64,000 bases of DNA, taken from assembly GCA_965215005.1 (NCBI GenBank), contig CBDCCZ010000060.1:96001-160000 (forward strand). The letters are read 5' to 3'. The position numbers and the translations under genes are program-made. Under the pieces are notes generated by a model, which saw nothing but the letters and a program-made list of their open reading frames with translations, had not been told where the DNA came from and did not search any database. Of this stretch, positions 36,200 through 59,625 are shown one piece after another. The stretch is from Kofleriaceae bacterium (GTDB lineage Bacteria; Myxococcota_A; Polyangia; Haliangiales; Haliangiaceae). Positions within the stretch are counted from its first letter, which is position 1; every line of letters begins with the position of its first letter.

Positions 36200-36868
36200 A
36201 TGCCCGATGTTCGTGCCGAATCACACGACGTAGCCGCACCGCGCTCACGCCTCCTTCGGGACCTCGCCACGGTGCCAAACATCATTTCGATGTCGCGCAT
36301 CGTGCTCATCTGCGCGGCCGTGTTGCTGTTCATTTACGGCTTGCCGCTGGTCGGGCTGATCGTTGGCACCATCTGCGGCCTGTCCGACTACTTCGATGGA
36401 TGGTTGGCGCGCCGTTCGGGCACCGTAACCGAGATTGGCGCCATTCTCGATCGGCTCGGCGATCTGGTCTTCGAGATGGTGGCGATGGTCTTCGCGGTCT
36501 ACTCGCAGCTGTTGCCGCCGCTGCTGTTCATTCTGTATCTGCTCCGGGAGGTGCTGGTCATGTCGGCGCGCCAATACGTGGCCGAGCATCGCGAGCGCGG
36601 CGTCGTCATCGCCACCTCGTTTTACGGCAAGCTCAAGACGAATTTCCTCGGCTATAGCTTCTTTGGGATCTTCTTGGCCGCCGCTGGAGTGTTGCCTGCG
36701 CACCTAGCCGAAGTACTGCAGCTCATGGCGATCATCACCATCGCCATCGGAGTCGTGTTCTCATACATCTCTGGCTATCAGTACCTCGCTGGTTTCGCGC
36801 GCGCCTACGATCTTGGTGCCGACGGCGCGGCTACCACAGCGCCGCGGTCCTCAAAACTTGGCGAGTAG
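36200..36868 (+). CDS. CDP-alcohol phosphatidyltransferase (PgsA-like)
   Basis: [20 protein letters not shown]...[10 protein letters not shown] signature, GKLKT. Confidence 0.92.
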
Positions 36869-42448: not shown

Positions 42449-43858
42449 ATGCGCAACAGGTTGGTATCGGTGTGCTCGTTGCTAGGATTCGTGCCTATCA
42501 TCGCTCTCGGGGGATGTCTCGCCGAGGATGCTAGCGGCTCCGAGGAAGATGTCGGTTCCACTGCATTGGCAGCCAAGTCGCCGCCGGGCTTGGCGAAGAA
42601 GGTCCGAGATTTGGCAGCTGAACACGGCGTTGGACCCGTGGCAGCGGCGCCGACCATTCGACCGGCGTTGGTCGAGCTCGGACAAGCGCTGGCGTTCGAC
42701 AAGATCTTGAGTGGCAACCAAAACATCTCTTGTATGACCTGCCACCACCCCGACCTCGGTCTAGGGGACCAGCGTTCTCTGTCAGTTGGAGAAGGAGGCG
42801 CGGGTCTGGGACTGTTGCGCCTTCATCCCGACGGAACCTTCATCCCGCGCAACGCGCCATCGCTGTTCAACCTGCATCTACTAGGCACGATGTTCTGGGA
42901 CGGCCGTGTAAAGCAGACCGCCTCAGGCGAGCTCATCACCCCAGCGGGCGCGCAACTCACCCCCGCCATGAAGGCGGTGTTCGAGTTCGGCGCGGTCTCG
43001 GCGCAGGCGATGTTTCCGGTCACCTCGATGGAAGAGATGCGTGGTCATGCGGGGCAGAACCCGATCGCCAATATCCCTGCCAGCGACTTCACCGCTATCT
43101 GGAATGCCTACATGAGCCGACTGCAGGCAATTCCGCGCTACGAAGTACTATTCGAAGCTGCCTATCCGGGTACCGACTTCAGCGACATGACCTTTGCTCA
43201 CGCGGCCAATGCCATCGCTGGATTCGAGATAGCGGCCTACTCAGCGACGAACACCGACTGGGATCGCTTCTTGGCTGGCAACAACGATGCGTTGACGCAA
43301 GACGAGCTAAAGGGGGCGGAGGCGTTCTTCACCAAGGGCGCCTGTGCGGGTTGCCACTCTGGACCGGCGTTCACCAACCTCGATCACCACAATACCGGAT
43401 TAGCTCAGCTCGGTCCGGGCAAAGGGGATGGCGCCGACGGCCGTGATGACTTTGGCCGACAACGGGTATCGGGAGCCGTCGCGGACCGCTACAAGTTCCG
43501 CACGCCGCCACTGCGCAACGTCGCCATCACCGGCCCGTGGGGACACGACGGCCAGTTCACCGACTTGACCAACTTCGTGCGTCACTACAACGATCCGCAC
43601 GCGCAGCTGCTGGCTTACGACCCGACCGAGGTCGAAGAAGCGCTGCGTCCGACGATTCTCGATACCTTCGCGCAGATCAGCGCGACGATCGATCCGCTCA
43701 TGAACGACGCCAATCTCAACGAGGTCGAGATCGGCCGTATCGTCCTGTTCCTCGATACGCTAACCGACCCAGCCTCGCTCGACCTCATCCACACCGTGCC
43801 CGAGAGCGTGCCGAGCGGCATTCCTCTGGGCGACGACCTGGGCTCGCTCGTGCCGTAG
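42449..43858 (+). CDS. Di-heme cytochrome c peroxidase/MauG superfamily lipoprotein
   Basis: CMTCH and CAGCH heme motifs, RNAPSL, FWDGR, FRTPPLRNV; GGGAGG SD; lipobox LGGC. Confidence 0.93.
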   Translation: MRNRLVSVCSLLGFVPIIALGGCLAEDASGSEEDVGSTALAAKSPPGLAKKVRDLAAEHGVGPVAAAPTIRPALVELGQALAFDKILSGNQNISCMTCHHPDLGLGDQRSLSVGEGGAGLGLLRLHPDGTFIPRNAPSLFNLHLLGTMFWDGRVKQTASGELITPAGAQLTPAMKAVFEFGAVSAQAMFPVTSMEEMRGHAGQNPIANIPASDFTAIWNAYMSRLQAIPRYEVLFEAAYPGTDFSDMTFAHAANAIAGFEIAAYSATNTDWDRFLAGNNDALTQDELKGAEAFFTKGACAGCHSGPAFTNLDHHNTGLAQLGPGKGDGADGRDDFGRQRVSGAVADRYKFRTPPLRNVAITGPWGHDGQFTDLTNFVRHYNDPHAQLLAYDPTEVEEALRPTILDTFAQISATIDPLMNDANLNEVEIGRIVLFLDTLTDPASLDLIHTVPESVPSGIPLGDDLGSLVP

Positions 43859-43935: not shown

Positions 43936-45255
43936 TCAATCGTAGTATTCAGCGCCCAAGTGGGTGATGAGCTCATCGCCCTTGGTGTAGCGCAGCGTGT
44001 TCTTCAGCTTCATGAGCTGAATGAACAGGTCATGCTCGGGATACAGCCCCGGCGGGGTCATGGGGCTCTTGAAGTAGAACGAGAGCCACTCTTGAATTCC
44101 CTGCATTCCGGCGCGCTTGGCAAAGTCCATGAACAACGCCAAGTCGAGCACGATCGGAGCGGCGAGGATGGAGTCGCGGCACAAAAAGTCGACTTTGATC
44201 TGCATCGGGTAGTTCAGCCACCCGAAGATGTCGATGTTGTCCCAGCCCTCTTTGTTGTCGCCACGCGGCGGATAATAGTTGATGCGAACCTTGTGATAGA
44301 GGTCCTTGTAGAGATCTGGGTAGGTCTCGGGCTGCAAGATATAGTCGAGCACGCCGAGCTTGGAGATCTCTTTGGTCTTGAACGAGTCGGGGTCGTCGAG
44401 GACCTCGCCGTCGCGGTTGCCCAAGATGTTGGTCGAGAACCAGCCCTGAATGCCCAAGAGGCGCGCTTTGAAGCCAGGCGCCAAAATGGTCTTCATCAGC
44501 GTCTGGCCGGTCTTGAAGTCCTTGCCACAGATCGGCGTCTGCGTCTGCTTGCACAGCTCTTGAATCGCTGGAATGTCGACGCTGAGGTTAGGAGCGCCGT
44601 TGGCGTATGGAACGCCGAGCTTGGCGCACGCGTAGGCGTAGATCTGCGATGGGGCGATGGCGTCGCTGCTTTGCCGCAAGCCTTGCTCGAACTTCTCGAG
44701 CGACGAGTGGACCTCGCCGGGTTGACGATAGACTTCCGTGGAGCCGCACCAAACGGCAACCAGCCGCTCGCAGCCGTTGTCGGCCTTGAAGCGGCGGATG
44801 TCTTCCATGAGCTGCTCAGCGAGATCCATCTTGGAGCCGCCCTGCTTCACGTGGTCACCGTGCAGCTTCTTGACGTAGGCTTGCTCGAAGACTGCCTTCA
44901 TTGGCTTGACGCTGCTGAGCTCGTCTTTGATCGCCGCCAGCAGCTCTTTTTCGAGCACTCCGGCTTTGGATGCCGCCTCGAACGCGTCTTCGGCAAAGAC
45001 ATCCCAGCCGCCAAATACCAAGTCATCGAGCGTGGCGAGCGAGACGTAGTCGCGAATGGTGGGCACGCGGCCCTCGGTGCGTTTCCCGAGCCGTATGGTG
45101 CCCATTTCCGTGAGCGAGCCAATCGGCTTGGCGAGGCCACGGCGAATGGCTTGAACACCAGCGATGAACGTTGTTGCGACCGCGCCCATGCCCGGCAGCA
45201 GCACCCCGAGCTTGCCGGATGCAGGGGTGACTTCGACGCCTTTTTTGAGAGCCAT
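43936..45255 (-). CDS. ino1: myo-Inositol-1(3)-phosphate synthase
   Basis: PGMGAVATT, FGGWD, STE, GKDFKTGQT, NILGNRDG, DNKEGWD, CRDSILAAPIVLDL, YFKSP. Confidence 0.96.
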   Translation of the reverse strand: MALKKGVEVTPASGKLGVLLPGMGAVATTFIAGVQAIRRGLAKPIGSLTEMGTIRLGKRTEGRVPTIRDYVSLATLDDLVFGGWDVFAEDAFEAASKAGVLEKELLAAIKDELSSVKPMKAVFEQAYVKKLHGDHVKQGGSKMDLAEQLMEDIRRFKADNGCERLVAVWCGSTEVYRQPGEVHSSLEKFEQGLRQSSDAIAPSQIYAYACAKLGVPYANGAPNLSVDIPAIQELCKQTQTPICGKDFKTGQTLMKTILAPGFKARLLGIQGWFSTNILGNRDGEVLDDPDSFKTKEISKLGVLDYILQPETYPDLYKDLYHKVRINYYPPRGDNKEGWDNIDIFGWLNYPMQIKVDFLCRDSILAAPIVLDLALFMDFAKRAGMQGIQEWLSFYFKSPMTPPGLYPEHDLFIQLMKLKNTLRYTKGDELITHLGAEYYD

Positions 45256-45537
45256 GAGATGTCTCCTGAGCAGAGCGCGAGCAGGCAGTGAAAATGCGGC
45301 GTATGCGCGGCATCGAGCCTAGCGCTCCTCGCTGAATCAATCGCGGGACGTTGCCTCAGTTGCCCGAGCCGCGCAAGCCCCGTAGCTCGGTTTGCTCCGC
45401 GGAGCGACTCCCACAGCTTTCGGAAACTCGTCATGAGCAAATCATGGGTGGCGCGTTCGCGGCTGGGGCCGGTGGCCTTCCCCTTGCACTGCGGGCGGAG
45501 ACAGTGCTCGCTCGCGCGCGAGCCAGAAGGAATCACG

Positions 45538-46299
45538 ATGGCCACCACCGCAGTCATTCTCGCCGCTGGCCGCGGCAGCCGCCTCGATCCCGGCGGTAAC
45601 ACGCTCGAGTTCTCAAAGCCCCTCATGAAGGTCGGCGGCCAGACCTTGCTCGAGCGCACGGTGAGCTGTTGCCGAGCTGGCGGCGCCCGGCGCATCGTGA
45701 TCGTGAGCGGCTTTCGCGCCGAGCTCGTCGCCGCCGAAGCACATAGAATCGATCGCGGGGACCTCACCGTTGTCTTCAATGAAGACTGGCAGAAGTCCAA
45801 TGGGCTGTCGCTCTACTCGTGCCGTCACGAGGTGGAGGACGACTTTGCTCTAATGATGAGCGACCATATCTTCGACCCCTCGATTCTCGCGGATCTGATG
45901 GCGTTGGCGGTGCCGCCGGCCTCGGTGACCCTGGCGGTCGACCGCAAGGTCGAACAAGTTTTCGATCTCGATGACGCTACCAAAGTGCGCATCGACGAAG
46001 CGGGTCGCATCGCCGCCATTTCGAAGCAGCTCGAGCACTACAACGCCATCGATTGCGGGCTGTTTTTGTGCACGCAACGCATCTTTGCGGCGCTGGCCGA
46101 GGCGATGGCCGGGCGTGGCGACTGTAGCTTGTCGGAAGGCATGGCTTTGATTGGCCGGCAGGGCAAGTTTCTGCCGTTCGACATTGGCGGGCGCTGGTGG
46201 CAAGACGTCGACACCCCGGAAATGTTGGCCAACGCGCAGAGCCTGCTGCACGGCGAGCGCATTCCGGCACCAGAGCAGCCGGCACGGGCGGCCTCGTGA
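45538..46299 (+). CDS. Nucleotidyltransferase resembling CTP:inositol-1-phosphate cytidylyltransferase (IPCT/LicC-like)
   Basis: ILAAGRGSRL, KPL, SNGLSL, MMSDH, DDATKV, IDCGLF, WQDVDT; divergent from ino1. Confidence 0.85.
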   Translation: MATTAVILAAGRGSRLDPGGNTLEFSKPLMKVGGQTLLERTVSCCRAGGARRIVIVSGFRAELVAAEAHRIDRGDLTVVFNEDWQKSNGLSLYSCRHEVEDDFALMMSDHIFDPSILADLMALAVPPASVTLAVDRKVEQVFDLDDATKVRIDEAGRIAAISKQLEHYNAIDCGLFLCTQRIFAALAEAMAGRGDCSLSEGMALIGRQGKFLPFDIGGRWWQDVDTPEMLANAQSLLHGERIPAPEQPARAAS

Positions 46300-46442
46300 C
46301 AGTGACTCGCCGGCATCGGAAAGGTCGCTACCTGGTGTCGAAACGGTGACGATTCCCCACCTCGAGTGGTAGCAATTCAACACTTCGGTGTCGTCGGGCG
46401 CGGGAAGTGACTGAGGGGTGACGCGGCGGTCTCGTAGCGTCG

Positions 46443-46458
46443 TGGCACGTGCCTTGCT
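46443..46458 (+). promoter_or_regulatory. Sigma-54 promoter
   Basis: TGGCAC-GTGCC-TTGCT, an exact match to TGGCAC-N5-TTGCW, about 30 nt before ATG 46490. Confidence 0.8.
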
Positions 46459-46489
46459 GTTTCCGCTACTTCTGGACGCTGGAGCTCCC

Positions 46490-48322
46490 ATGATTCGTCG
46501 CGCCATTCTTCTTGCTCACCGCCTCGTGTTCGATGGCGGCAGTGAGCTTTCACCCTCTTCTGTCGCGTTGCTGCGGCGGTCGCTCGCGGTGATGGCCAAG
46601 GCCGGAATTCGCGAGGTCTGCGTCGTCGATGGCGAGCGCGCCGAGGAGTTGCGCGAGGCGCTCGTGCTCGCAGAGCTGCCGACGCTGCGAGTGCGGGTCC
46701 TTGCCAACCGATCGTGGAAGAAAGCGTCAGGATCGGCGCTGCTGGTGGCTCGTGATTTCTTGGCCATGGGCCCTTGCTTGGTGCTGCGCGGCGACCGGCC
46801 ACTCGAGGTCGACACGGTAATCGCCTTGGCTCAGGCCGAGCTCGAGGCTCACGAGGCAGCAATCGTGGTCGCCGATGCGCCGGACACCGACGTGAGCGAC
46901 GAAGTCAAAGTTCGGCTTTGTGGCGGCGACGTTCGCAGCATCGGCCTGGATCTGGTTCCGTTCGATGCGATCTTCACCGGGCACGCCTCAGTGACGCCGG
47001 CAATCATCGAGCTGCTCGCGAAGATTCCCAACCCTGAGCTCGAAGACACGCTGGTGGAGTTGGCTGTGAGCCGGCGAATTCGTGCACTTCCGGGGCGCCT
47101 GGCGTGGCCATGGGGGATTCGGCGTCCCACCGAGGTGCGCGAGAACGTCGCCGCGATCCTCGAAAGCAAGCATCATCCGCGGCACACGCTGCTAAATCCC
47201 GGTCCGGTGAACACCACCGCGGGCGTCAAAGCGGCACTCATTCACCATGATGTTTGTCACCGTGACTCGAGCTTCAGTGAGCTCATGGTCTCGCTCACAG
47301 GAAAGCTTCGGCGCATCTTTCGCGCCACTCCACATCACACCTGTGTGCTGGTGACCGGTAGCGGAACCGCAGCGATGGAAACTGCAGTGGCCTCTGCGGT
47401 GCCGCGCGGCGGCAAGATCTTAGTGATCGATAACGGCGCCTTCGGCGAGCGCCTGTACGAGGTCGCTCGGCTCCACGAGATGGATATCGTGCACCTTCGC
47501 TATGCGTGGGGCGACTTGGTCAAACCAGCCGACGTCGCGCGCGCCTTCGAAGAGCATCCCGATATCGCGGTGGTGGCAATGTGCCATCACGAGACCTCGG
47601 TGGGACTGCTCAATCCGGTGCGCGAGGTTGGCCAATTGTGTCGGCGGCACGACGCGCTACTCATCGTTGACGCGGTGTCATCGTTAGGCTCCGAAGATAT
47701 CGATGTGGTTCGTGACCACGTCGATATCTGCTATTCGAGCGCGAACAAGTGCCTACACGCCATCAGCGGCGTTGGTTTCTTGTGCGTTTCACCGCGGACT
47801 TGGCAAAAGATCGAGTCGATCAAGCCGCGGTCGTATTACCTCGACCTCAAGCGATATCGCCGGTCCATGGAAGAGCTGGCGCAAACGCCATTTACACCGG
47901 CGGTGTCTACTTATTTTGCGCTCGATGCGGCATGCGCGGAATTTCTAACTGACGGCCACGCAGCGCGCTGGTCGATGTACCGGCGGCGCAATCGACTGCT
48001 GCGCGATGGGCTAGCCGAGCTCGGTATGGTGCCATTTACTCGCACCGGCAAAGAGTCCCACTCGGTCGTCACGTGTGCGGTCCCCGAAGGCATTGCCTTC
48101 CATCAGCTCTACGATCGCCTCAAGGCACACGGCTACATCATTTATGGCTGCAAGGATGTCTTGGCCGAGCGGTTTCTCCAGGTCGCCAACATGGGCGACT
48201 TGGACGATGGGATGATCAGGCGGTTCCTCGAGACTGTAGCAGCGGTGCTCGAGGAGCTTCGCGTTGCCAATGGGTTGATTCCGGCACTGGCCTCGCCACG
48301 CTGGGCCCGCGCCACCGCGTAA
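46490..48322 (+). CDS. Fusion of a degenerate nucleotidyltransferase domain and a class-V PLP aminotransferase (PhnW/AEP-transaminase-like)
   Basis: C-domain LLNPGP, HRD, GSGTAAME, NGAFGER, HHETS.G.LNP, DAVSS, SSANKC, TPFTP; N-domain is colinear with the upstream IPCT but lacks AAGxGxR and DVD. Confidence 0.85.
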   Translation: MIRRAILLAHRLVFDGGSELSPSSVALLRRSLAVMAKAGIREVCVVDGERAEELREALVLAELPTLRVRVLANRSWKKASGSALLVARDFLAMGPCLVLRGDRPLEVDTVIALAQAELEAHEAAIVVADAPDTDVSDEVKVRLCGGDVRSIGLDLVPFDAIFTGHASVTPAIIELLAKIPNPELEDTLVELAVSRRIRALPGRLAWPWGIRRPTEVRENVAAILESKHHPRHTLLNPGPVNTTAGVKAALIHHDVCHRDSSFSELMVSLTGKLRRIFRATPHHTCVLVTGSGTAAMETAVASAVPRGGKILVIDNGAFGERLYEVARLHEMDIVHLRYAWGDLVKPADVARAFEEHPDIAVVAMCHHETSVGLLNPVREVGQLCRRHDALLIVDAVSSLGSEDIDVVRDHVDICYSSANKCLHAISGVGFLCVSPRTWQKIESIKPRSYYLDLKRYRRSMEELAQTPFTPAVSTYFALDAACAEFLTDGHAARWSMYRRRNRLLRDGLAELGMVPFTRTGKESHSVVTCAVPEGIAFHQLYDRLKAHGYIIYGCKDVLAERFLQVANMGDLDDGMIRRFLETVAAVLEELRVANGLIPALASPRWARATA

Positions 48323-51030: not shown

Positions 51031-51810
51031 TCAGAATTGGCCGCGGAAGACCGGGGCAATCGCGGCGGGATCATCGGTCATAATGCCGTCGGCGCCGAGC
51101 GCCAAGAGGGCGCGCGCGTGCGCAGCATCATTGATGGTCCAAAAGTCGACCCGAACCCCGAGCTGGTGACACTTGTCGATGAACGTTTTCCGCGCGAGGG
51201 GAACGCCGGCCGCGGAAACCGGAACCTGCGCCGCGTTGCCAAAGCTCGGTATCCGGCGAATGACACTTCGCGGAGCAGATGCCAAAAGCGCCACTTCAGG
51301 GCGGGACAACGCCGTAGGGCCCTCGTACCCGTGCCGTCGCACCGCCACCAGCGTGCGCCAGTGAAAGCTCGCCAACGTCACCCTCTCGGTCGCGCGCAGC
51401 CGGCGCAGTAGCGAAACGGTCGCTTGCGTCATCGCGGGCCAGAGCTGCTTGAGATCGACGTTTAGCGGGGTCGGTGCCAGCTCGACGAGCACTTCTTCCA
51501 AGGTCGGCACGCCGATTCCCTTGCCCGCGAAGGTCCGAGCGCCGTCAGCGCTGCGAAATCCCCAGCCAACGTCCCACTGGCGAACTTCGGCGAGCGTGCA
51601 GTCGCGGATGCGAGCGTCAACGCCTGCCATGCGTTTGCCGCTCGCATCATGCGACAACACCACGTGACCATCGCGGGTGAGGTGGGCATCGGTCTCGATG
51701 GCGTCGGCGCCACATTCGAGCGCTCGGCGAAACGCGGCGAAGGTGTTCTCCGGCTGCTCGATGGCGGCGCCGCGATGGGCGTATAGCACCGGAGCGCGGC
51801 CGCGGTTCAC
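51031..51810 (-). CDS. Glycerophosphodiester phosphodiesterase
   Basis: AHRG, PENT..AF, ETD, HD, PTLEE, WTIND, GIMTD. Confidence 0.94.
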   Translation of the reverse strand: MNRGRAPVLYAHRGAAIEQPENTFAAFRRALECGADAIETDAHLTRDGHVVLSHDASGKRMAGVDARIRDCTLAEVRQWDVGWGFRSADGARTFAGKGIGVPTLEEVLVELAPTPLNVDLKQLWPAMTQATVSLLRRLRATERVTLASFHWRTLVAVRRHGYEGPTALSRPEVALLASAPRSVIRRIPSFGNAAQVPVSAAGVPLARKTFIDKCHQLGVRVDFWTINDAAHARALLALGADGIMTDDPAAIAPVFRGQF

Positions 51811-57625: not shown

Positions 57626-58636
<1,011 letters not shown>

Positions 58637-58788
58637 CGACACCTCCGAAGGCCAATGTAGCTCCCCGCGCGCAGCGCGTGCAAGACAACGGCCCGGGCAA
58701 GCACTGTCTCGACCATTGCAAAGCACGGCAGGCGCAGCATTGCCGTCGCGACACGGCATTGGCCGCAGCCAAGACTCATCGATGCGAC

Positions 58789-59625
58789 TCACCTTGCTGC
58801 TCGCGGCGATCGCCGCAGCCGGCACACCAACACTTGATTCTCGGCCGCCGCGCTCAGCGGCTCGTCCTCGAAGTCGCCGTATCGCTCCGTCACCTCGAAG
58901 CCAGCATGTTCGATCAACGCGACGAGCTCGGCGGGAAAGAACTTCCGCTGCGACAGCAGAATCGCGTGTTCTTCGCCGGTCTCCCTCTGATAGTAGATGC
59001 GTACCGCGCAGATCTGCGTGACCGGATCATAGACGTGATTGGTGGTGTACACGAGCCGCTCTCCTGTGACCGGATGGGTAAAGCGGGTGCGCGACCAGCG
59101 GCGTTCAGAATCTCGACACAGCCACTCGAGATCGGGTAGCTGAACGTCAAAGGCGAAGACCCCACGGGGCGTGAGATGAGCGGCGACGCGCTCGAGCGCC
59201 TCCGTGACCTCGGCGGCCGAGTAGAGGTGCTCGAAGGAGTTGAACGCGCTGATGACGAGGGGGAACCGTCGCTCGAGCGCGAAGTCGCGCATGTCGGCGC
59301 GCTGCAGCGCGATGCGAGCCCGGGCGCCGCGCGGCAGCTTAGCGATGCGTGCTTCGGCTCGCGTCAACATCGCTGGCGAGGTGTCGATTCCGACGACCTC
59401 GTGACCATCCCGGGCGAGCGCAGTCGCGACGCGGGCGGTACCCACGGCAAGCTCCAGAACCGAGCCACTGGCGCCGAGTCGACGACGGGCGAGTCGCCGG
59501 TAAAAGCGCACGTCGTCGCGACGTCGGCGATACTCATAGTCGTAGAGCACCGCGTCCTCATAATGTTCGCGAGCACCGAGCTCGACCTCGGCTGGTGAGC
59601 GGCGCCGCTGCGATGAGCGCGCCAT
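58789..59625 (-). CDS. Class I SAM-dependent methyltransferase
   Basis: VLELAVGTARV, GID.S..ML, ADMRDF, FNSF.HL, HL.P.G.F.FD. Confidence 0.9.
   Translation of the reverse strand: MARSSQRRRSPAEVELGAREHYEDAVLYDYEYRRRRDDVRFYRRLARRRLGASGSVLELAVGTARVATALARDGHEVVGIDTSPAMLTRAEARIAKLPRGARARIALQRADMRDFALERRFPLVISAFNSFEHLYSAAEVTEALERVAAHLTPRGVFAFDVQLPDLEWLCRDSERRWSRTRFTHPVTGERLVYTTNHVYDPVTQICAVRIYYQRETGEEHAILLSQRKFFPAELVALIEHAGFEVTERYGDFEDEPLSAAAENQVLVCRLRRSPRAAR

Follow-up and report, generated by a model that had tools for sequence, protein, structure and literature searches.

It has been described that Cj1437 of Campylobacter jejuni converts dihydroxyacetone phosphate (DHAP) to serinol phosphate and that Cj1436 converts phosphoserine to ethanolamine phosphate (PMC12409886; papers are cited here by such numbers). 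Human PSAT1, a class V enzyme, transaminates DHAP slowly to serinol phosphate (PMC9283133), and in human AGT it is Arg360 that holds the carboxylate of the substrate (PMC9340776). For cytidylyltransferases, a GxGxR...PK consensus of nucleotidyltransferases has been given, together with the residues Arg15, Lys25 and the amine-binding Glu104 of PntC and the amine-contacting residues of LicC and PntC (PMC6697681). A putative alternative inositol-lipid cluster of Bacteroidetes is composed of genes for MIPS, a nucleotidyltransferase, a CDP-alcohol transferase and a HAD protein (PMC9246714). The locus described here lies in a window of 64,000 nucleotides (the whole stretch of DNA analysed, from contig CBDCCZ010000060.1 of an uncultured Kofleriaceae bacterium) and consists of ino1, a divergent gene for an enzyme of the CTP:inositol-1-phosphate cytidylyltransferase (IPCT) type, and a gene for a nucleotidyltransferase-like domain fused to a class V pyridoxal phosphate (PLP) enzyme.

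This system probably supplies an amino-alcohol phosphate and CDP-inositol for a membrane product. The best explanation overall, plausible though tentative, is that it comprises two head-group modules and that the class V enzyme produces serinol phosphate from DHAP; serinol phosphate was one of several candidates in the original prediction and ranks first here. The features of the locus are:

43936..45255, minus strand: ino1, myo-inositol-1-phosphate synthase, 439 aa (PF07994 at 332 bits and PF01658 at 110 bits, both over cut-off).
45473..45487, plus strand: sigma-54-type -24/-12 motif before the IPCT-type gene, GG-N8-TTGC, 50 nt before the ATG at 45538.
45538..46299, plus strand: IPCT-type cytidylyltransferase, intact, 253 aa, predicted to be a CTP:inositol-1-phosphate cytidylyltransferase (from PDB matches, motifs, NF041135 and orthologues adjoining ino1).
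46443..46457, plus strand: sigma-54 -24/-12 motif of the fusion, TGGCACGTGCCTTGC, a consensus match with a core conserved in Haliangiales fusions.
46490..48322, plus strand: the fusion, 610 aa from its ATG, with a class V domain (TIGR03301) behind a degenerate transferase N-domain.
46490..47134, plus strand: N-domain of the fusion (approximately residues 1-215), a degenerate IPCT-type nucleotidyltransferase, predicted inactive from the loss of motifs.
47165..48322, plus strand: C-domain of the fusion, a class V PLP enzyme with Lys420, Asp394, His257-Arg258, Tyr552, Lys555 and Gln564 (codon 48179-48181).

Profiles, structure matches and motif alignment confirmed the identities and positions that had been proposed for all three genes. 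Full-length orthologues of the fusion were sought in 200 genomes sampled across the phylum, of which one carries it, and separately in a genome collection, where 103 related loci were found and 80 kept. These 80 were split into 42 Haliangiales-type loci, with a dead N-domain, and 38 others, many of the contigs being short. The closest relatives of the fusion stem from records named Kofleriaceae, Haliangiales and Haliangium, and same-family loci are labelled Kofleriaceae in the tree. At the level of the order, 147 genomes were examined, two of them unpublished (co-occurrence tallies use the 145 published ones), and the class V domain is present in 58.

The structural model of the class V domain (pLDDT 94) has an ordinary class V fold, with TM-scores of 0.89-0.91 to 2dr1, 7e7g and 6pd1, and Lys420, Asp394, His257-Arg258, Tyr552 and Lys555 are invariant among the aligned orthologues. 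Gln564, however, replaces the carboxylate-binding Arg, and Gln is found in all 80 orthologues that cover this column (82 aligned). The AEP (2-aminoethylphosphonate) transaminases 1M32 and 6PD1 have Arg at this position, as do 27 of the 28 other class V matches of the phylum sample; the lone non-Arg match shares its cluster with ino1, an IPCT and a pair of CDP-alcohol transferases. We take the position of Gln564 to be equivalent to Arg360 of AGT, and the substrate-binding Arg to be Arg340 in the numbering of the Salmonella AEP transaminase. The Arg-to-Gln change had no place in the original prediction, nor had the LicC-type partner and the motif before the IPCT-type gene described below. The larger Kofleriaceae clusters contain a second, distant class V paralogue (L056:19205-20332 and four further loci), accompanied by MMPL, a PssA-like CDP-alcohol transferase and an RpiB-like gene; all 5 of its sequences that reach this column likewise have Gln.

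The best family and structure matches of the fusion are AEP transaminases, with which it shares the fold and the PLP Lys and Asp (TM-score 0.89 to 7e7g), and its domain order is that of Treponema PntC-AEPT. An ordinary AEP transaminase (PhnW/AepZ, or of the PntC-AEPT type) serving phosphonate scavenging or synthesis is nevertheless very improbable: the fusion scores under every PhnW/AepZ cut-off (TIGR03301, 322 against 360.8 bits; TIGR02326, 235.5 against 400.8; NF010006, 256 against 296), Arg340 is replaced and the N-domain is dead. The original prediction had also remarked that the partners needed for a phosphonate pathway are not adjacent, and no ordinary pathway of this kind was found in the genome (6.2 Mb, 65% GC, assembly 92.8% complete) either: it gave no match for pepM (PEP mutase) and, for ppd (phosphonopyruvate decarboxylase; cut-off 312.5 bits), three weak matches to thiamine pyrophosphate enzymes, none exceeding 34 bits. 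Among carrier genomes pepM exceeds its cut-off in 5 of 50, a sixth scoring 270 bits, and none of the 22 Haliangiales-type carriers scores above 53 bits. Four of the nearest Arg-type enzymes were tested: three lie 2-5 kb from a pepM-like gene (294-304 bits), and the fourth has pepM on another contig. Because the carboxylate-binding Arg is lost and pepM is absent here and rare in carriers, the PLP domain is very probably not an AEP transaminase, and AEP is not supported as a product.

The N-domain of the fusion is weakly IPCT-like (NF041135, E 9.4e-07). Both GxGxR-PK and WxDVD are missing from it, in the window protein and in every Haliangiales-type fusion, and the signature of an active N-terminal cytidylyltransferase as in PntC-AEPT (Arg15, Lys25, Glu104) is absent. 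It is predicted to be a dead IPCT-type relic, which perhaps acts as a scaffold. WQD[VI]D is retained by the N-domain in 29 of the 38 non-Haliangiales loci; in many N-domains of loci L087-L122, PN replaces the catalytic PK. In these same loci, outside Haliangiales, the fusion stands alone before a quinone-reductase-like gene, a MerR regulator and the isc operon.

Nucleotidyltransferases neighbouring these enzymes are of two kinds in a quick tree (7 rows without the trimming motif were left out): an IPCT type, which includes the window gene and the N-domains of the fusions, and a LicC/PntC type, with LicC as best match. The latter has acidic residues at the amine-contacting positions of LicC and PntC, and it is the usual partner of the class V gene, lying within 10 kb of it in 40 of 56 genomes. 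By an E-value cut chosen after the data had been seen, and among related and so non-independent genomes, 56 of the 145 published Haliangiales genomes have a strong LicC-type gene: 46 also have the class V gene, 10 a HisC-like gene, 1 both (at separate loci) and 1 neither. Among the 80 genomes with neither PLP gene, the LicC-type transferase was found in 1.

Clusters with the LicC-type gene, transferases and a flippase but without the class V gene have a HisC/CobD-like PLP gene instead. Ten genomes carry it, with identities of 66-100%; two further genomes, at 41%, were not counted. In two genomes (G383 and G385) it is divergent from the transferase, the slot that the fusion occupies in most Kofleriaceae. 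The window enzyme itself is class V and does not belong to this HisC-like class I/II family; TIGR01140, the class I/II family of CobD, 6oux and Cj1436-type proteins, gave no match for the fusion. The HisC-like protein keeps the HisC motifs, and its profile matches HisC transaminases (E 5e-63) better than decarboxylases (6oux, 1e-33; CobD, 2e-32). Its subfamily includes Campylobacter proteins, among them a 367-aa member, 32% identical to the Haliangiales protein, which may be Cj1437. Searches of plasmids with the HisC-like protein and a Campylobacter member returned ordinary hisC only. Members of this family also occur as fusions of 680-720 aa with an unrelated N-terminal part (seven proteins, some with PF18909 and one eukaryotic), and others are fused to HAD phosphatases or CoA-ligase-like domains.

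In the mechanism proposed, sigma-54 would control two head-group modules, and the three genes would encode their soluble first steps. Ino1 would provide inositol-1-phosphate and the IPCT-type enzyme would convert it to CDP-inositol, while the class V domain would transaminate DHAP to serinol phosphate, a product with no C-P bond. DHAP is phosphohydroxypyruvate with CH2OH instead of the carboxylate, and the Arg-to-Gln change therefore fits a change of substrate to DHAP: the phosphate would be bound by His257-Arg258 and Lys555, with Gln564 turned towards the CH2OH, at the site where other class V enzymes bind a carboxylate. In most relatives the LicC/PntC-type cytidylyltransferase would then CDP-activate the amino-alcohol phosphate, and membrane CDP-alcohol phosphotransferases would join both head groups to a lipid alcohol. 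The link to CDP-alcohol transferases, foreseen in the original prediction, is seen in 28 of the 42 Haliangiales-type loci, where one lies within 10 kb and is often fused to a dead transferase domain. Other neighbours in these 42 loci are a Wzx flippase (20), an inositol monophosphatase (14), MMPL (8) and a HAD hydrolase (7); the flippase and neighbouring glycosyltransferases suggest that part of the product may be a lipid-linked glycan.

The same architecture could serve a class V L-phosphoserine decarboxylase, which would yield phosphoethanolamine and, from it, CDP-ethanolamine. The outcome would be either a decoration with ethanolamine phosphate or a Kennedy-type route, here bacterial, that leads to phosphoethanolamine on a ceramide or ether lipid. 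Loss of the carboxylate-binding Arg with retention of the phosphate-site His-Arg is what a decarboxylase would require, and the known substrates of LicC/PntC-type partners are two-carbon aminoalkyl phosph(on)ates (PMC6697681). Precedents are found in FrbH, a cytidylyltransferase::PLP decarboxylase fusion (PMC8007912), and in Cj1436 (PMC12409886). This alternative is nonetheless unlikely, as the alternating HisC-like gene resembles a transaminase and not the solved decarboxylases, phosphoethanolamine lacks the free hydroxyl that a PgsA-type enzyme would need, no LicC-type activator was found in this genome and two phosphatidylserine decarboxylases are already encoded there. An anti-correlation with phosphatidylserine decarboxylase was considered and dropped on account of these two copies, as was choline kinase as the source of an aminoalkyl phosphate, with one match in this genome, below cut-off.

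Turning to the inositol side, ino1 is single copy in this genome and is present in 44 of 50 carrier genomes. Against solved structures the 253-aa transferase has IPCTs as its top matches (2xme, E 5.6e-22; then 4mnd and 4jd0), with PntC (6pd1, 4.7e-06) and LicC (1jyk, 6.5e-05) far behind. Its NGLSL, MSDH, DATKV and WQDVDT align with the IPCT of A. fulgidus, and MSDH, DDATKV, SLSE and WQDVDT with 2xme; the LicC-type DGDV, EEMK, EYYE and EID are not found in it, in keeping with an IPCT-type substrate site. The nucleotidyltransferase signature is present as AAGRGSR...SKP, and NF041135 matches with 134.8 bits, over its transferase (N-terminal) half only. Orthologues of the gene adjoin ino1 in seven loci, and the closest ones (61-68% identity, three genomes) are accompanied by ino1 and a CDP-alcohol transferase without the fusion. 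Judged by family assignment, Ino1 and IPCT, travelling with CDP-alcohol transferases, most likely constitute a first module for CDP-inositol. Outside Haliangiales, ino1 stands alone, adjoining rpsB-tsf (L087-L122).

Co-occurrence in relatives, which the original prediction had named as a check, is supported: ino1 was found within the fetched flank of 10 kb in 23 of the 42 Haliangiales-type loci and in none of the 38 others. As the closest IPCT orthologues lack the fusion and all three genes share a locus in only 7 of 80 cases, ino1, IPCT and the fusion are two separable modules, and the single linear three-gene pathway that had been envisaged is not supported. A linear inositol pathway, in which the PLP domain would aminate an inosose (free, phosphorylated or CDP-linked) or make an acceptor of CDP-inositol for a soluble phosphodiester osmolyte, could draw on the proximity of ino1 in those 23 loci, on the IPCT-type N-domain that keeps WQD[VI]D outside Haliangiales, and on this genome and G191, which have ino1, IPCT and a Gln-type enzyme and no LicC-type gene. 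It is improbable, with ino1 missing beside the non-Haliangiales fusions, IPCT orthologues without the fusion, Gln-type enzymes in operons without ino1, no dehydrogenase that recurs regularly beside the fusion in Haliangiales, and nearby flippase, MMPL and glycosyltransferase genes that point to the envelope. A zinc-type dehydrogenase that adjoins 22 non-Haliangiales fusions was rejected as an inositol oxidase; it was seen at one Haliangiales-type locus only and precedes the isc operon. Of the head-group proposal in the original prediction, a CDP-activated inositol and an amino-alcohol head group are retained. AEP and the linear pathway are not supported, and neither is aminoinositol, since no dehydrogenase is constant in Haliangiales and the same enzyme type occurs in operons without ino1.

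The sigma-54 promoter that had been proposed before the fusion is well supported as a prediction by the spacing of GG-N10-GC, the conserved position of the motif and the presence of rpoN in the genome. All 39 of 39 Haliangiales-type fusions have the core GG-N8-TTGC in the 70 nt before their start, against 1.7% expected, and 12 of 30 non-Haliangiales fusions have it in the 120 nt before theirs, against 3% expected; this pattern was picked after the upstream sequences had been viewed, though spacing and position are fixed. The strict consensus occurs 6 times in the genome, about what base composition would lead one to expect (an estimate), and in 1 of 41 Haliangiales-type fusions. An earlier conclusion from that count, that the motif is not conserved, was discarded, the strict pattern being too narrow. 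No GG-N8-TTGC motif is present on the ino1 side of the intergenic region. Upstream of the sigma-54 motif, 40-75 nt before the fusion start in loci L056-L082, CTGACG is followed by CAAGT some 12-15 nt on, possibly an activator site or the promoter of a divergent gene.

Several points weigh against the serinol phosphate reading, the first of them in this genome itself, where no LicC-type gene was found by a protein search or a six-frame profile search. It is one of 10 class V genomes, among the 147 examined, without a strong LicC-type gene. The gene may lie in the missing ~7% of the assembly; G191, which is 96% complete, has the same set of ino1, IPCT and Gln-type enzyme without a LicC-type gene. 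Nine CDP-alcohol transferases are encoded in the genome, and one was found among the scanned proteins of the window, 7.07 kb from the ino1 cluster, in agreement with the original prediction that the window's only such gene lies about 7 kb off:

36200..36868, plus strand: PgsA-like CDP-alcohol phosphotransferase paralogue, a probable member of the system (TIGR00560, 88 bits against a cut-off of 109).

In a tree from which 14 rows were left out, including a gene of this genome on contig C54, the 36200 gene groups (support 93, with long-branch warnings) with transferases adjoining Gln-type enzymes in G191, three metagenome loci and L085; the metagenome scan gave 11 loci, of which 8 were read and 2 of those were spurious. 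The paralogue is present in 10 of the 147 genomes, all ten with the class V gene, four of them within approximately 12 kb. Serinol phosphate is an isostere of glycerol-3-phosphate, and its free hydroxyl could accept a phosphatidyl group. In this genome the PgsA paralogue might therefore condense CDP-diacylglycerol directly with serinol phosphate, the weakest step of the mechanism. Set against this step, only 4 of the 10 class V genomes without a strong LicC-type gene have the paralogue, and a single genus accounts for 6 of its 10 carriers. Inositol-1-phosphate is an equally possible acceptor, and the enzyme may then be a phosphatidylinositol-phosphate synthase.

Beyond this genome, Gln-type enzymes form three groups in a fast tree, and the Sulfitobacter and Tumebacillus members are about 35% identical, their common origin with the fusion not being supported; a single origin of all Gln-type enzymes was accordingly abandoned. 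On Bacillus thuringiensis plasmid pYGD36 (NZ_CP019232.1; L179:9765-21558 and L181), a Gln-type transferase::class V fusion lies beside two nonribosomal peptide synthetase genes and not lipid genes. The loss of Arg would suit a decarboxylase as well and does not account for how the amino donor is bound, and the alternating class V and HisC-like genes need not share a product. Cj1437 itself is only presumed to belong to the HisC-like family, and the choice of cut and the relatedness of genomes noted above bear on the tallies. Every reaction and the lipid product are inferred from gene identities, motif losses, the Gln, the promoter motif and co-occurrence.

The class V module of this genome could also be a remnant that has lost its LicC-type partner, with CDP-inositol synthesis alone at work. 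Both searches for a LicC-type gene were negative, and a CDP-alcohol transferase at C49:178144 stands without one, while its homologues precede one in two other genomes. Such decay has a slight probability at most: the class V domain is intact, on a short branch and with its promoter motif kept, the assembly is incomplete and the more complete G191 has the same gene set. Further parts of the system are likely encoded at C54:296055-301475 and C33:28374-32166. At C54:294857-301475, a cardiolipin-synthase-like phospholipase D, a CDP-alcohol transferase with a shortened dead N-domain, a family 4 glycosyltransferase, an asparagine-synthase-like amidotransferase and a Wzx flippase were seen; glycosyltransferase genes like this one adjoin ino1 or IPCT in three genomes. 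At C33:28374-32166 the genes for a metallophosphoesterase, a class III aminotransferase and two CDP-alcohol transferases follow one another. The aminotransferase has a 56% homologue in G390 that directly adjoins a Gln-type class V gene and a flippase, and a second PLP step may belong to the system.

Gln-type enzymes extend beyond the phylum: of the best 120 homologues of the G191 protein, 119 have Gln and one is cut short. In Tumebacillus and Fodinisporobacter the LicC-type transferase is fused to a Gln-type domain, and plasmid NZ_CP025806.1 of Sulfitobacter sp. SK012 (L180:10004-12819) carries genes for a Gln-type enzyme, a CDP-alcohol transferase and a LicC-type transferase in succession, without ino1. 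Sulfitobacter SK012 is cultured, and its three genes make up a minimal module. The pYGD36 cluster also contains a LicC-type transferase, a major facilitator superfamily transporter, a 5'-nucleotidase, a NUDIX protein and a phosphopantetheinyl transferase, with no pepM listed, and is a candidate for a natural product using a CDP-amino-alcohol. Many homologues carry the database label '2-aminoethylphosphonate-pyruvate transaminase'. If the reading is true, many proteins so labelled would be reassigned to an amino-alcohol synthesis that involves no phosphonate, and a single residue, Arg or Gln, would tell the two sorts apart; this bears on metagenome estimates of phosphonate metabolism.

In its widest form, the proposal is that Haliangiales and other bacteria make undescribed phospho-serinol membrane lipids, via CDP-serinol or a PgsA paralogue. 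Sigma-54 would control them together with the CDP-inositol lipids, and they would be built up further into a lipid-linked glycan that is flipped across the membrane; the class V enzymes with the Arg-to-Gln change, annotated as AEP transaminases in several phyla, would be a new family of DHAP transaminases. Taken as a whole this is rather doubtful. If true, the phospho-serinol lipid would be an amino analogue of phosphatidylglycerol, either as such or as the corresponding ether or ceramide lipid. In a literature search that left subscription journals outside, no report was found of phosphatidylserinol, CDP-serinol or glycerophosphoserinol, so the head group predicted here would be one without a report found; nor was there a report of this gene cluster or of a class V phosphoserine decarboxylase. 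The ESM Atlas returned generic family names only.

Among the remaining genes of the window, one is a conserved neighbour:

51031..51810, minus strand: glycerophosphodiester phosphodiesterase (PF03009).

It lies downstream of the fusion in 11 of 81 loci and, judged by N-terminal sequence, adjoins ino1 in L166 and L167; it is possibly a turnover enzyme. A di-haem cytochrome c peroxidase of the MauG family (42452-43858, plus strand) converges on ino1 and is not a conserved neighbour in related loci. An ORF at 57626-58825 (minus strand) has a signal-like stretch by prediction, followed by a run of some 40 acidic residues, almost exclusively Asp (~58400-58530).

When compared with known systems, the fusion has, by sequence, the layout of Treponema denticola PntC-AEPT (6PD1; PMC6697681), a nucleotidyltransferase-fold domain followed by a class V PLP domain (TM-score 0.89), but fails membership on three tested features: its N-domain is IPCT-type and predicted dead, the equivalent of Arg340 is Gln, and PEP mutase and phosphonopyruvate decarboxylase are missing. 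FrbH of FR-900098 biosynthesis (PMC8007912) likewise joins a cytidylyltransferase to a PLP enzyme other than a simple transaminase; it differs as a phosphonate natural-product enzyme with an active transferase domain, and the likeness drawn here is one of layout. Cj1437 and Cj1436 of Campylobacter jejuni (PMC12409886, PMC13276843) catalyse the two reactions considered here for the class V domain, and the HisC-like gene that replaces the class V gene in ten Haliangiales genomes has Campylobacter family members. The Campylobacter enzymes belong to another PLP class, and there an ATP-dependent ligase joins the amine to glucuronate through an amide bond, with no CDP or lipid involved (PMC13276843). 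The LicC/LicA choline and eukaryotic Kennedy pathways share the proposed order of aminoalkyl phosphate, CDP-activation and CDP-alcohol phosphotransferase; unlike them, the aminoalkyl phosphate here would be made de novo by a PLP enzyme, and no choline kinase is over cut-off in this genome.

The first module belongs by sequence with IPCT, and shares Ino1 and an IPCT-type enzyme with the DIPPS and BEPIS systems, in which CDP-inositol leads to di-myo-inositol phosphate and inositol ether lipids; relatives of this locus likewise add CDP-alcohol transferases and a HAD hydrolase. It departs from the di-myo-inositol phosphate pathway in that no DIPPS is fused or adjacent to the IPCT-type gene (the nearest CDP-alcohol transferase being the PgsA-like one 7 kb off), and it is coupled instead to a PLP module, a Wzx flippase and glycosyltransferases. 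It also resembles the putative alternative inositol-lipid cluster of Bacteroidetes (PMC9246714), and would be a myxobacterial case of a CDP-inositol lipid route that is still putative in that group.

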